A stretch of DNA of 64,000 nucleotides from Octopus vulgaris (Eukaryota), in assembly GCA_951406725.2 (NCBI GenBank), contig OX597838.1, positions 5,642,001 through 5,706,000 of the forward strand, in the 5' to 3' direction. Position numbers and translations under genes: made by a program. Positions 21,727 to 63,848 of this stretch are shown here, piece after piece. Position 1 is the stretch's first letter, and each line of letters begins with the position of its first letter. The notes beneath the pieces are model-generated. The model did not search any database, was not told where the DNA came from, and saw only the letters and a list, made by a program, of their open reading frames with translations.

Positions 21727-21882
21727 AGGCAGCGGCAGGCAAAATGTTTAGCGGCATTTCGTCCGTCCATATGTTCTGAGTTAAGATTCTGTCGATTTCA
21801 ACTTTGACTAACATCCGTTCGGGGTATATACAATTAAGTACCAGTGAAAGACTAGGGTGAGTGTAATCGACTAGTCCCGTTC
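21727..21882 (+). mobile_element. Degenerate SINE A
   Basis: tttagcggcatttcgtcc...gttctgagtt...cggggt...aattaagtaccagt...gtgtaatcgact. Confidence 0.7.
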
Positions 21883-22693: not shown

Positions 22694-22700
22694 TCCTTAA

Positions 22701-22864
22701 GGCGGGGAGCTGGCAGGAAACCACAGCGGTCGACATTTTTTAGCTGCGTTTCGTCTGTCGCGACGTAATGATTTCAAATTCTGCCGAGGTCGACTTTACT
22801 ATTCCTCCTTTCGGGGTCGATAAATCAAGTACCAGTTGAGTACAGGCCTTGAGCTTATAGTCGA
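22701..22864 (+). mobile_element. Degenerate SINE A
   Basis: ggcggggagctggcag...ttcaaattctgccgaggtcgacttt...cctttcggggtcgataaatcaagtaccagtt. Confidence 0.8.
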
Positions 22865-27212: not shown

Positions 27213-27443
27213 GGGAGCGAGCTGGCAGAACCGTTAGCACGCCGGACGAAATGCGTTGCCGTATTTCGTATGTCGTTACGTTCCGAGTTCAAATCCCGCC
27301 GAGGTCGACTTTGCCTTTCATCCTTCCGGGGTTGATAAATTAAGTACCAGTTACGCACTGGGGTCGATGTAATCGACTTAATCCCTTTGTCTGTCCTTGT
27401 TTGTCCCCTCTGTGTTTAGCCCCTTGTGGGTAGTAAAGAAATA
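27213..27443 (+). mobile_element. SINE family A, full-length monomer (tRNA-derived)
   Basis: A-box-like tggcagaaccg, B-box gagttcaaatccc, central ccgaggtcgactttgcctttcatcc...gataaattaagtaccag, tail ccccttgtgggtagtaaagaaata. Sits in (TA)n. Confidence 0.92.
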
Positions 27444-36885: not shown

Positions 36886-37940
36886 AGGCATGTTTTTTTT
36901 TTTTGGTGTTTTAAAGAAACAATATATTTCAATATTATAGATGTTTTAAAGCTTCTATATGATACCTTATAATTTTTTAGTAGAATAAATTTTCTAGTTT
37001 CCATTTCTAGAAATTCATCCATCCAAAGAGTTAACGCCAGATTCTTACTTCTTCCTCAGAAAAAAAAAAAAAAAAGGTTAGAACGGTTGTGTCTTATCAA
37101 AAATAGAAAACGAATATTTTAAGTTAAAATGAATGGAAATATTGAATGTAAAATTACAAATAACACAGAAATACAGATGTTTTTTTCTTTAATATGTAAA
37201 ACTAAACAATAATTCATTTCAAGATGGCAAAAAAAAAAACAGTGAATTTGAGGGGAGGGGAGCAACTGGATTTCATCATCACCAGCGCTCAAACGTTATT
37301 CATTTTACCAATCCCAAAGGGTGAAAGGGAGCTGAACGAACTCTCTGGACTTATAATGAGCCGCAGATGACTTATATTCTATGTTAGTGTGAATAATGGT
37401 CATCTTGGAATAGCCTACAGATCGGATAAAGGCAAGGTTTGACGTTTCTTGGGACTTGTTCTCTATGACACATTGAATCAACGCTACAACGATTGATATG
37501 GTGTCTCTCCAATGTTCATGGTTATATTGCACCCTCCACCAAAAGAAAAAAAACACGGATGTCAATGCTGATATCAATGAATTTCTTTTTCTTTATCAAA
37601 ACAAACAAGATAGCAGTGCGCACATCCATACTTTGTTTAAGTCACTCAAATGGCGGCATATTGGAGCACATTCTTCTTTTCAGATAATTCGAGTGATATT
37701 TACGCACTTAATTCCATACAGAAATGGCATAAATGGCGGGACGCTGCAAGTGGTGATGGTGGTGGTGCGGGTAATTCTAGGCGCAAGTAGAAATCGAAGG
37801 GAAGATAAATAACAAAAGAGATTTTTGTTCAAACTAAAGATTTGAGTATTCCATATCAGTTTTCCATCACTAGATGGCTATCTCTATATCTCTCATTTTC
37901 TCTCTCGCTCTGTATCTATAGGTCACTCTACATATTGATG

Positions 37941-52915: not shown

Positions 52916-53212
52916 GTATATAGAGAGAGATAGATAGATTGATAGACAGAAAGATAGATAGATATTATGCATAAATATATGTTTGTGTATCTGTGATGGA
53001 AGGTGTGGTGATTGTGTAGTGTAAGCAGTCATTGATGAAAGAACGGAAAATGACCCCAAATCGTCTCATATTTGACATCTGAAAAAGGAATATTCCTCTC
53101 TTCACTTGTCACCAAGTCTCTGCCTCATGTTTTACACAATTAGATCAAGGAAAAGCGTATTTTTCCAGAATACAAATCGAAGTAATATATAATATAATAG
53201 AACCATGTCGAA

Positions 53213-53402
53213 GGTGGCGAGCTGACAGAAACTTTATCACGCCAGGCGAAATGCTTAGCAGTATTTCGTCTGCCGTTACGTTCTGAGTTAAAATTCCGCC
53301 GAGATCGACTTTGCCTTTCATCCTTTCGGGGTCGATAAATTAAGTACCAGTTACGCACTGGGGTCGATATAATCCACTTAATCCGTATGTCTGTCCTTGT
53401 TT
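53213..53402 (+). mobile_element. SINE family A, 3'-truncated monomer
   Basis: ggtggcgagctgacagaaac...gtatttcgtctgccgttacgttctgag...gtcgataaattaagtaccagttacgcactggggtcg. Confidence 0.9.
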
Positions 53403-57094: not shown

Positions 57095-57200
57095 AATCGG
57101 TTCATATTTTATCGATGCTGTGATGCTGAAAGATAAAGTAGGTGTCGGTGGAATTTGAACTAAGAAGAGAAAACCGGTAGAGACGCCGCTAATACTTCGT
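57095..57200 (-). mobile_element. Degenerate SINE A fragment
   Basis: ttttatcgat...gaaagataaagtag...tcggtggaatttgaactaagaa...gccgctaa. Confidence 0.5.
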
Positions 57201-57760: not shown

Positions 57761-58377
57761 AGATATACCAGCGTTCAACAGGTAGTTCTTTTCAGGTGTG
57801 TAAACTGGATAAGCATGGAATGAACTGATTTGCTAAAAACTCACAGCAAGGTGCCTAGTCAACCTACGAATATATGATAGTCATCGCACACCAAAACTAA
57901 GATACTGTTTCCTTTCACACATTTAATCAATATTTAGCACATGAAATAAGAGTAAAATATTTGATATTATAATTAAGAAAGGTCAGATTTGGTGAGTAAT
58001 GAATGCTTTCTGAAAGAAGCAAGTTTGCATGTTAAAAATAACGAGATCATTATGTCCTTTTCCATTCTCTGACGGCGTTTTCTACTACATCAGATATATG
58101 TTTGTTATTTCTACCGTATCCAGCTGCTATTTTAAGCCAAGTTTAACAAACATTAATAAGAATAATCTTAGAAGATATATCTGTCGTAGGCTTTACCAAG
58201 GTGTCTTCTAGCCAAGCATTATAATGTACCCTTTCTTTGATACAGAGAATAATTACTATTTCTATTAATTTAATAATCGATGTTCACCTATTCTCTCTTC
58301 CAGGCCGTTTTTTGCGATTGTAGGGTGCCTCGTTATAGTTGGTTGCCAGAAGTAGTGACAGATATATTTGGGACAAA

Positions 58378-58723
58378 GGCGGCGAGCTGGCAGAAACGTT
58401 AGCGTGCCAGACGAAATGCTCAGCGGCATTTCGTCTGCCGCTACGTTCTGAGTTCAAATTCCGCCGAGGTCGACTTTGTCTTTCATCCTTTGGGGGTCGA
58501 TAAATAAAGCACCGGTTACGCACTGGGGTCGATGTAATCGACTTAATCCGTCTGTCTATCCTTGTTTGTCCCATCTGTGTTGAGCCCCTTGTGGGTAGTA
58601 AAGAAATAGAAATGGGTATTGTGTCTGCCTTTCGGTTCTGAGTTCAAATTCTGCCGAGGTCGGCTTTGTCTTTCATCCTTTCGGGGTCGATAAATTAAGC
58701 ACCAGTTGCGTCCTGGGGTCGAT
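58378..58723 (+). mobile_element. SINE family A dimer (full monomer plus a head-less second body)
   Basis: Monomer 58378-58608, junction aagaaata-gaaatg-ggtattgtgtctgcc, second body ~58615-58723. Confidence 0.9.
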
Positions 58724-58734
58724 TAAAAAAAAAT

Positions 58735-58985
58735 TCGGGCCTTCTGTCTACAGTAGAAAAGATACGTCTTAGACAGATATGAGAACCTACAGAGGCTAGC
58801 GTGGATCTGTCGGACCGATCCCTTAACGTTCCAGCCCCCAGAAAGCTAGTAATTCTGAAGAGCTGATATTTTGGCAAGGAGGACTGTAGCCTATGTTTTG
58901 GACGGTTGTGTGATGTGAGAAATGTTTGGCAGCTATCTTTAGCAAATCGGGCATCCTCTCCACATAGAATAACCCTCACACGGTA
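58735..58985 (+). mobile_element. Possible decayed RTE-type LINE 3' coding end
   Basis: CEKCLAAIFSKSGILS resembles the terminal CxxC...SxIGLxSH motif. Stops present. Confidence 0.3.
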
Positions 58986-61410: not shown

Positions 61411-61827
61411 ACTGTATGTATATGCAAGTATGTATGTTTTATTGTGTCTTCACCCTTCATAGGTGTCTAAGAAAATCATGATATGAGTTATACATCAGTA
61501 AACCGATGGTTGGCAGATTTACAGTGTCGGCAGGACGAAATGTTAGAATATGTGTTGCAGACGTAATTAAATAGGAAATAGCATTATCGCATAATCAGCA
61601 ATACTTGATTGATTAGCTCTATTACACTGCATTTGGACATATCGAATCTAATCTGACATCGTTGATTTACTTCTCTGTGAACGACAGTCAGACTTGTCAA
61701 CGTCAGGCCGACGTTAGATAACGTGTTTTTCCGTAGACTAACCTCTCAATTATGTGACATTATAGCTTTTCTCATCAGAGACCGTAAAGTTGAATCGTTA
61801 AGATATTTAGCGAAACATTAATATATT

Positions 61828-63537
61828 AAGGCGGCGAGTTGGCAGAAACGTTAGCACGCCGGGCGAAATGCGTAGCCGTATTTCGTCTGCCGTTACGTTC
61901 TGAGTTCAAATTCCGCCGGTAGGTCGACTTTGCCTTTCATCCTTCCGGGGTCGTTAAATTAAGTACCAGTTACGCACTGGGGTCGATGTAATCGACTTAA
62001 TCCGTTTGTCTGTCCTTGTTTGTACCATCTGTGTTTAGCCCCTTGTGGGTAGTAAAGAAATAGGTATTTCGTCTGCCGTTACGTTCTGAGTTCAAATTCC
62101 GCCGAGGTCGACTTTGCCTTTCATCCTTCAAGGGGTCGTTAAATTAAGTACCAGTTACGCACTGGGGTCAATGTAATCGACTTAATCCGTTTGTCTGTCC
62201 TTGTTTGTACCATCTGTGTTTAGCCCCTTGTGGGTAGTAAAGAAATAGGTATTTCGTCTGCCGTTACGTTCTGAGTTCAAATTCCGCCGAGGTCGACTTT
62301 GCCTTTCATCCTTCCGGGGTCGTTAAATTAAGTACCAGTTACGCACTGAGGTCGATGTAATCGACTTAATCCGTTTGTCTGTCCTTGTTTGTACCATCTG
62401 TGTTTAGCCCCTTGTGGATAGTAAAGAAATAGGTATTTCGTCTGCCGTTACGTTCTGAGTTCAAATTCCGCCGAGGTCGACTTTGCCTTCACATCCTTCC
62501 GGGGTCGTTGAATTAAGTACCAGTTACGCACTGTGGTCGATATAATCGACTTAAATTCGTTTGTCTGTCCTTGTTTGTACCATCTGTGTTTAGCCCCTTG
62601 TGGGTAGTAAAGAAATAGGTATTTCGTCTGCCGTTACGTTCTGAGTCCAAATTCCGCCGAGGTCGACTTTGCCTTTCATCCTTCCGGGGTCGTTAAATTA
62701 AGTACCAGTTACGCACTGGGGTCAATGTAATCGACTTAATCCGTTTGTCTGTCCTTGTTTGTACCATCTGTGTTTAGCCCCTTGTGGATAGTAAAGAAAT
62801 AGGTATTTCGTCTGCCGTTACGTTCTGAGTTCAAATTCCGCCGAGGTCGACTTTGCCTTTCATCCTTCCGGGGTCGTTAAATTAAGTACCAGTTACGCAC
62901 TGGGGTCGATGTAATCGACTTAATCCGTTTGTCTGTCCTTGTTTGTACCATCTGTGTTTAGCCCCTTGTGGATAGTAAAGAAATAGGTATTTCGTCTGCC
63001 GTTACGTTCTGAGTTCAAATTCCGCCGAGGTCGACTTTGCCTTTCATCCTTCCGGGGTCGTTAAATTAAGTACCAGTTACGCACTGGGGTCAATGTAATC
63101 GACTTAATCCGTTTGTCTGTCCTTGTTTGTACCATCTGTGTTTAGCCCCTTGTGGGTAGTAAAGAAATAGGTATTTCGTCTGCCGTTACGTTCTGAGTTC
63201 AATTTCCGCCGAGGTCGACTTTGCCTTTCATCCTTCCGGGGTCGTTAAATTAAGTACCAGTTACGCACTGGGGTCAATGTAATCGACTTAATCCGTTTGT
63301 CTGTCCTTGTTTGTACCATCTGTGTTTAGCCCCTTGTGGGTAGTAAAGAAATAGGTATTTCGTCTGCCGTTACGTTCTGAGTTCAAATTCCGCCGAGGTC
63401 GACTTTGCCTTTCATCCTTCCGGGGTCGTTAAATTAAGTACCAGTTACGCACTGGGGTCGATGTAATCGACTTAATCCGTTTGTCTGTCCTTGTTTGTAC
63501 CATCTGTGTTTAGCCCCTTGTGGGTAGTAAAGAAATA
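61828..63537 (+). mobile_element. SINE family A concatemer: one tRNA-like head plus nine ~184-bp tandem bodies, 14-bp TSD
   Basis: Units start at 61877, 62063, 62248, 62432, 62618, 62802, 62986, 63170 and 63354. ATATTTAGCGAAAC occurs at 61803-61816 and 63537-63550. Confidence 0.95.
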
Positions 63538-63685
63538 TATTTAGCGAAACCACTGAGGGGGGATCATCCTGCGTGCTGGTTCAACCAGCTAGTAAGAGAA
63601 ATGAAGTGCCTCTCAAATTGCTGTCCTAAAAAGTGGTTTTCTATTCTGGTACAAAAGCAGCAATTTTGAAGGGTGGTGGGGGGTC

Positions 63686-63848
63686 ATGTCGATTTTATCA
63701 ACTCCGGTGCTCAAATGTTATTTATTTTATCGAACCCCGAAAGTATGACAGGCGAAGTTAAACTGGAGAATTTGAGCTCAGAATGTAAAAACGGTCCAAA
63801 TGCCACCAAGTATTTTTCCGGTGCGCTAACGATTCTGCCAGTTTGCCA
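63686..63848 (-). mobile_element. Degenerate SINE A-related copy
   Basis: ttttatcgaaccccgaaag...gaatttgagctcagaa...gcgctaacgattctgccagtttgcca is the reverse complement of the head and core. Confidence 0.7.

Follow-up and report, generated by a model that had tools for sequence, protein, structure and literature searches.

The origin of tandem arrays from SINEs is usually ascribed to DNA recombination, and it is so ascribed without a test in the available text of two recent accounts (PMC10702118, PMC11481361). Martelossi et al. (2024) described TSD1-(SINE)n-TSD1 multimers in the blood clam Scapharca broughtonii and proposed recombination as their source (PMC11481361), and Vassetzky et al. (2023) described the SINE-derived satellites (sSats) of squamates (PMC10702118). 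In the bacterial defence system DRT2, Wilkinson et al. (2024) described concatemeric cDNA (PMC12039810). The reverse transcriptase (RT) of R2 jumps from the 5' end of a template to another 3' end with little homology (PMC4117753), and in the U6/LINE-1 chimeras made by RTCB the joining of RNAs before retrotransposition gives precise chimeric insertions (PMC13247085). The tRNA-derived SINEs of Octopus, OK, OR1 and OR2, are credited to Ohshima and Okada (1994) in the available passages of PMC4758252, PMC4824008 and PMC3531059; the CORE-SINE label is attached to OR2 in the first of these and to OR1 in the second.

The locus analysed here is a tandem array within a window of 64 kb (the whole stretch of DNA under study) of microsatellite-rich animal DNA with ~33% G+C. 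Like the clam multimers it has one duplication, a complete first head and repeats truncated at one head position, but the first and middle units of the clam are also truncated at the 3' end, as unequal exchange would give, whereas the octopus units keep full tails; the accessible part of the clam account contains neither a junction sequence nor an RNA structure (PMC11481361). With the sSats the array has in common tandem units that carry box B and lack the 5' head, one longer terminal unit, the same unit boundaries at many loci and alternating subvariants within arrays (PMC10702118). An sSat, typically a long homogenised array with a subtelomeric preference, comprises at least four middle monomers of partial SINE sequence and a longer terminal unit, and in the octopus array we found seven middle units and a head-bearing 5' unit. 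In the available description of sSats a DNA-level origin is assumed, target duplications are not analysed and arrays reach ~1000 units (PMC10702118); in contrast, the octopus array is short and dispersed, with a clean duplication and a palindromic junction at the edge of a hairpin loop. DRT2 resembles the array in that part of the interior of a structured non-coding RNA is copied precisely and in tandem. As far as the available text goes, however, it relies on a dedicated RT, on ACA motifs at both template ends and on a promoter and frame rebuilt across the junction (PMC12039810), none of which was found here: the window holds 60 frames of 110 or more codons, but none past 59045 that could be a dedicated RT gene beside the RNA, and the unit junction does not restore the A box. 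The R2 jump, in the accessible portion of its description, adds up to 5 untemplated bases and is not programmed for a site, whereas the octopus junction has one dominant register (PMC4117753); the U6/LINE-1 chimeras, in the text available, are single joints of two RNAs with no multimers (PMC13247085).

The architecture itself is already published for the clam, and the new aspect lies in the junction, which in several species is fixed and linked to structure, and in the full tails. Neither octopus SINE multimers nor a loop-edge re-entry site were found in the literature searched; subscription papers, Repbase or Dfam entries and the 1994 paper may describe them. The array family is presumably one of the Octopus OK/OR SINEs, judging from the resemblance of head and body, with the name serving as a lead only, and the likeness extends to two sister families with a common head and body and different tails (seen as loose ends at 61997). 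A base-precise loop-edge junction in three related species, with full tails and in two sister families, makes a countable system, and RNA-level and DNA-level origins predict different patterns on the existing assembly. If an RNA route were true, it would link retrotransposition directly to the birth of satellites; if the junction is inherited, the array would belong to an ordinary but abundant complex-SINE subfamily.

Anatomy of the array and its unit junction

The array at 61828-63536 consists of one full SINE monomer followed by eight head-less 3' units of ~184 bp (Table 1). We read it as a multimeric insertion of a putative tRNA-derived SINE, with the palindromic stretch as its unit junction. 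Of the attributes by which tRNA-derived SINEs are recognised, the element is shorter than 1 kb (236 bp), dispersed, present in many copies and flanked by a 14-bp target-site duplication; further hallmarks of the class are Pol III boxes with a head at least 60% identical to a tRNA, for which only box-like candidates were seen by eye, and a 3' end in common with a partner LINE. A single 14-bp pair encloses the whole array, with no target duplication between its units. The nine units have a mean pairwise identity of 97.6% and all of them extend to GAAAT(A), the full tail. In the contig comparison described below, the 5' ends of copies of the family cluster at 61827/61828. No TTTT run occurs in 61826-63540, so that transcription by Pol III from the single head could extend through all units. 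The extra bases ahead of the head are included in a perfect 12-bp A/T palindrome (61818-61829), and 8 of them recur across the 3' end of the array.

Table 1. Positions of the array, its parts and the other SINE copies in the window
Feature	Position	Strand	Remarks
Target-site duplication, 5' copy, 14 bp	61803..61816	+	longest common substring of flanks
Extra bases (11) between duplication and head	61817..61827	+	presumably untemplated or transduced
Full SINE monomer, 236 bp	61828..62063	+	tRNA-like head, body, tail
A-box-like Pol III promoter element (candidate)	61840..61851	+	first unit only; by eye against the consensus
Head hairpin, 13 bp	61860..61888	+	4-base loop 61873-61876; -17.2 kcal/mol
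Re-entry site, 3' edge of loop	61877..61878	+	61877 or 61878, ambiguous
B-box-like element (candidate)	61904..61914	+	in each unit; sequence against the consensus
First junction palindrome, GAAATAGGTATTTC	62057..62070	+	tail GAAATA, G, re-entry GTATTTC
Eight head-less units, ~184 bp	62064..63536	+	starts 62064, 62249, 62433, 62619, 62803, 62987, 63171, 63355
Target-site duplication, 3' copy, 14 bp	63537..63550	+	
Independent older dimer	58376..58770	+	full copy of the array's family, then unit from same site with sister-family 3' part
Monomeric copy, same subfamily as array	27217..27443	+	no second unit
3'-truncated monomeric copy	53211..53402	+	
Older relatives of SINE body	21738-21872, 22697-22837, 63688-63840 (minus), 57099-57172, 37269-37328		70-76% identical

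The sequence GAAATAGGTATTTC was found at all eight junctions (62057, 62242, 62426, 62612, 62796, 62980, 63164 and 63348), in agreement with an initial annotation of this DNA that had read each of them as GAAATA-GG-TATTTC; the span given there, 62055-62072, takes in two more flanking bases on each side. The perfect 6-bp inverted repeat claimed in that annotation is present in the letters, but a 6-bp hairpin is not, since its 2-base loop cannot close. In predicted folds of dimer RNA the junction formed a hairpin of 5 bp with a 4-base loop at a probability of ~0.7, the sixth pair having a probability of 0.0, and the isolated junction sequence gave no fold at all. The joined sides share at most one base (0-1 base of microhomology), and the G at the joint has three possible sources: the tail, a head that carries G at 61877, and untemplated addition. 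Among the 206 possible re-entry positions of the monomer, only the run 61876-61879 yields a 6-bp stem with the tail, and a stem of this length at the fixed junction was obtained in 0.4% of 20,000 dinucleotide shuffles, or in 0.7% when the real tail was kept. These figures overstate the surprise, because the 5' strand of the head hairpin reads GAAATG and the tail GAAAT is a copy of that strand; since re-entry takes place at the 3' strand of this same hairpin, any tail ending in GAAAT is automatically complementary to the site. An assembly artefact was rejected on the grounds that three runs, each from a different study, have contigs with the junction and that the units differ from each other, although the number of units may be inexact.

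The junction in contigs of three related species

The reference 61600-62063 was compared with four of 24 runs: contigs from organism A (X3), organism C (X6) and organism E (X10), and raw reads from X21. Between 101,573 and 336,414 contigs were matched per run. Only 18 of 12,895,792 raw reads matched, 12 of them less than 90% alike and one with the junction, which is too few to inform, and the RNA-labelled runs contained at most 0.07 of the words. The precise junction for which the initial annotation had sought an explanation does call for one: it is family-wide and recurs well beyond the array, in contigs of all three species. Fifteen of 563 joints were listed, 11 of which start at the tail. 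Among the tail joints listed, the contigs with re-entry at 61878 numbered 134 of 233 for organism A, 197 of 354 for organism C and 8 of 10 for organism E, and those with re-entry anywhere in 61878-61881 numbered 190, 290 and 8, respectively. Twelve of the 534 rows with letters between the two sides were listed, 10 of them from the tail, and the junction register was kept in 9 of these 10; we therefore read them as substituted copies of one junction and not as ragged joints. Among the joints listed, none led from the tail to the start of the head and none from the tail to 61877. Loose ends before 61878 numbered at least 1142 in organism A and at least 1415 in organism C, with a tail-like consensus (agreement 0.56 and 0.53), and loose ends at the true 5' end at least 550 + 871 and at least 694 + 1168; these counts, like those of the joints, are lower bounds, and as contigs also break in repeats none of them is a frequency. 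The loose ends before 61878 in organism E (at least 269) read as ordinary heads clipped at variants of the reference itself.

A minor tail joint, from 62062 to 61844, also recurred in the three species (4, 17 and 2 contigs among the joints listed). Its stem is only 1 bp, so the complementarity that had been invoked for the junction is not required for a recurrent joint. This second joint enters the A-box region, and its entry AGAAAC resembles the tail AGAAAT; direct microhomology may drive it, to judge from the letters.

One contig from organism C runs from the flank into the head, which means that this organism shares the insertion. In organism E one contig matches the flank up to 61814 and continues with ~185 letters that do not match, a pattern suggestive of an empty site, and no flank was seen in the contigs from organism A. 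The subfamily whose loop-closing pair (61872, 61877) is G/C occurs commonly in organisms A and C and hardly at all in E. There the tail junction, too, seems to be less common, and the tail depth of the array's family is much lower, contig depth, here and below, being no measure of copy number.

Within the window there are four head-bearing copies (identity 90-100%), three of which have a tail, and in two of these three the tail is followed by a unit that starts at the 61878-type site. Besides the array, such a unit is present in the dimer at 58376-58770, whose junction has a doubled tail motif and the A-to-G form of the standard junction, a form also found in the contigs from organism C. At its 3' end the second unit of the dimer has the sequence found as the loose end at 61997; the dimer joins two families and hence requires two molecules, or a later switch by homology. 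It is old (85% identity) and has no clean target duplication, only a displaced 9-mer, and its two units share two variants that are absent from the other copies. The sister SINE family is abundant; its head and body are common to both families up to 61997, after which it has a different 3' part.

The head hairpin and RNA folding

TATTTC had been described in the annotation as the 3' strand of a hairpin at the anticodon-arm position (61862-61887). The hairpin itself was confirmed by folding (-13.0 kcal/mol), while its identity as an anticodon arm is positional only. The whole tRNA-like head is predicted to fold as one long irregular hairpin (61843-61903), not as a cloverleaf; such a long hairpin might be open to cutting by enzymes of small-RNA processing. 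ARAGORN reported 0 tRNA genes, Rfam gave no significant family and no tRNA match at E<=10, the A- and B-box-like motifs being recognised by eye, and the T-stem halves do not pair. Retrozymes, tandem retroelements with a self-cleaving ribozyme in each unit, were rejected as a model for the element, since no Rfam ribozyme was detected in 61700-62300 at E<=10; an undescribed ribozyme is conceivable. Across the four copies in the window the loop-closing pair 61872:61877 is G-C, U-G or U-A, and it is kept via two-sided changes in two of the four; such changes affect 2 of the 33 predicted pairs. The hairpin arm looks maintained over this thin set of four related sequences.

Folding of the whole monomer was no better than that of shuffles (z -0.39), which limits the structural argument to the head hairpin. 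The initial annotation had proposed that in the intact RNA the tail competes with the 5' strand of the arm, and had offered folding of the monomer as a check. In the predicted fold of the intact monomer the arm pairs had probabilities of 0.997-1.0, tail-arm pairs stayed below 0.0001 and forcing them cost +11.1 kcal/mol; two of two other tailed copies folded likewise, with no tail-arm pairing, and this part of the proposal is not supported. When the 5' strand was removed, leaving a 3' fragment from 61878, the tail paired with the start of the fragment at a probability of 0.09-0.12 and a cost of ~2 kcal/mol, and in a fragment that starts eight bases earlier this probability fell below 0.01. In an RNA nicked in the loop, the predicted pairing between the halves was worth -9.5 kcal/mol and left the tail unpaired. 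Pairing of the tail could therefore aid a jump or a ligation after a cut, and not compete in the intact RNA.

Origins of the junction and a related element

The history of the array can be read in part from its variants. The reference letters at 61945, 61954, 62024 and 62027 are replaced in 86-96% of the contig depth in organism A, and all nine units carry them; such family-rare alleles in every unit indicate one lineage. Of two further variants, one is shared by units 2, 5, 7 and 8 (4/9) and the other by units 3, 5 and 6 (3/9), so that all four combinations occur, and otherwise the 12 CpGs of each unit are hardly changed. Since one copying session cannot pass changes from unit to unit, the units must have exchanged sequence once inserted or else stem from a multimeric source, and the repeated passes from one monomer in one session that were envisaged at the outset do not explain the pattern alone; collapsed assembly haplotypes are a possible confounder. 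At 61877 the head of the array has C, whereas the junctions carry the G of the other subfamily (79% of depth in organism E, 32% in organism A). This difference speaks for inheritance of the junction, unless the tail supplied the G, as the G after GAAATA at 58609 would allow.

We tentatively favour an origin in which a cut or drop-off is defined by the hairpin, the RT jumps from end to end, and the array grows later by read-through and exchange. The hairpin, and not the tail, would set the site: either the SINE RNA would be cleaved at the loop's 3' edge, or the refolding 5' strand would eject the nascent cDNA at that edge. The RT of a partner LINE, which would be at that end during target-primed reverse transcription, would then jump to the 3' end of its own or another SINE RNA and add a head-less unit, and copying would stop once the RT ran into a head. 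Pairing of the tail with the arm would help only after the 5' strand had departed. Multimers so made would spread and change in length as Pol III, starting at the single head, read through them and as units exchanged sequence. The anatomy, the single target duplication, the recurrence and register of the junction, the predicted hairpin, the missing TTTT and the shared variants are results of the analysis, whereas we infer all of the RNA-level steps, from the cut or drop-off to the jump and the read-through.

The dominance of re-entry at 61878 among the listed tail joints of all three species agrees with the hairpin-defined origin, as do the register kept in 9 of 10 listed rows, the lack of a tail-to-head-start joint among those listed, the position of the site at the 3' edge of a loop whose closing pair was kept by two-sided change in two of four copies, and the re-entry of the two-family dimer at the same site. 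The shared sequence of at most one base is unlike homology-driven DNA slippage, which would use GAAAT and keep the loop. The -9.5 kcal/mol of pairing in the loop-nicked RNA would keep a matching head at hand, the 3' fragment from 61878 can pair tail to start (0.09-0.12), and the RT of R2 jumps from template ends via untemplated bases and microhomology in the available account (PMC4117753). However, the rivalry with a single inherited junction is close. According to this somewhat unlikely alternative, the junction had one origin or a few at most, dimeric or multimeric masters spread as a complex SINE subfamily with Pol III reading through TTTT-less units, and arrays grew by unequal exchange, like the SINE-derived satellites, the palindrome being incidental or mildly advantageous. 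A constant register (9 of 10 listed rows) is equally expected from one inherited junction, and jumps of the R2 type, with up to 5 untemplated bases in the text available, should blur it (PMC4117753). The head C against the junction G at 61877, with no tail-to-61877 joint among those listed, fits inheritance, the lack of TTTT in 61826-63540 fits read-through, and the four combinations of variants with nearly intact CpGs fit units that were duplicated or converted after they had mutated. Arrays of a head and truncated units within one target duplication are known from the clam, in the accessible text (PMC11481361). The dimer that counts for the hairpin-defined origin is one old locus with 85% identity and no clean target duplication, and the covariation comes from only four related copies. 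Against the inherited junction stands the same dimer, which would have needed either its own event at the site or a switch by homology inside ~14 bases; the rare alleles of all nine units would demand full homogenisation with the head unit, and the exact position at the loop edge is left unexplained.

The remaining readings divide this evidence differently. In one that we regard as unlikely, the SINE would have a built-in programme of repeat synthesis: in a loop-nicked RNA the head half would stay paired, and the RT would pick either the head, and finish, or the tail, and add a 184-base unit, the tail being perhaps a mimic of the 5' strand of the arm. Repeats made from one RNA by guided jumps fit the shared rare alleles but not the four combinations of variants or the folding of the intact RNA; if true, a single insertion event would suffice to produce a head-plus-n array, eukaryotes would have an equivalent of DRT2 repeat synthesis, and SINEs could become satellites directly through RNA. 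Cleavage in the loop with RTCB-type ligation, in which the 5'-OH of the 3' fragment is joined to the SINE 3' end and linear chimeras or a 184-base circle are then reverse transcribed, seems distinctly unlikely, even though it would account for the single-base precision and the two-family joints and the ends of the 3' fragment can pair (0.09-0.12). The canonical 3' tRNA exon starts ~16 bases before the B-box TTC, against 27 bases for the re-entry site, and this distance and the absent cloverleaf make the tRNA-splicing endonuclease an unlikely cutter; on the same grounds the RNA does not match a tRNA-intron splicing substrate (TSEN/RTCB), which has a cloverleaf and is cut one base 3' of the anticodon. 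RTCB needs a 2',3'-cyclic or 3' phosphate, here on the tail, while U6 has a cyclic-phosphate end, and a circle without a head would need an extra switch. In favour of ligation, RTCB joins U6 to LINE-1 RNA before retrotransposition in the available account (PMC13247085). The intact-monomer model of the initial annotation, in which the tail displaces the 5' strand of the arm and parks the 3' end at the restart while the RT cycles on one molecule, we hold to be improbable. It draws on the re-entry site being the sole 6-bp match of the tail in the monomer (chance 0.4-0.7%, uncorrected), on rare alleles of the head unit that are common to all units and on DRT2, which in the accessible text makes tandem cDNA from one ncRNA (PMC12039810). 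It conflicts with the tail-arm pairing below 0.0001 at +11.1 kcal/mol, with the same result in two of two copies, with the recurrent 61844 joint that has no such stem and with the four combinations of variants; an RT jumping back on one molecule cannot make the two-family dimer, and during copying the tail and the arm would both be paired with cDNA. Serial nested insertions of 5'-truncated copies behind the tail, or DNA slippage on short homology, are the least probable, although A-rich tails are common SINE targets and the 58376 dimer joins different families. For the array, the presence of one flanking duplication and of none between units largely refutes nested insertion, and rare alleles of the head unit are found in the other units as well. 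Slippage on GAAAT was rejected because it would keep the loop, which the junction lacks.

Pattern scans for the head and junction gave 0 matches in metagenome contigs, and a body pattern gave 0 matches in genome contigs and 0 in viral contigs. The body pattern had one match in metagenome contigs (L001, 655-870), a SINE-like element with an unrelated tRNA-like head and the same central stretch, which suggests, from this resemblance, a conserved domain shared with another animal.
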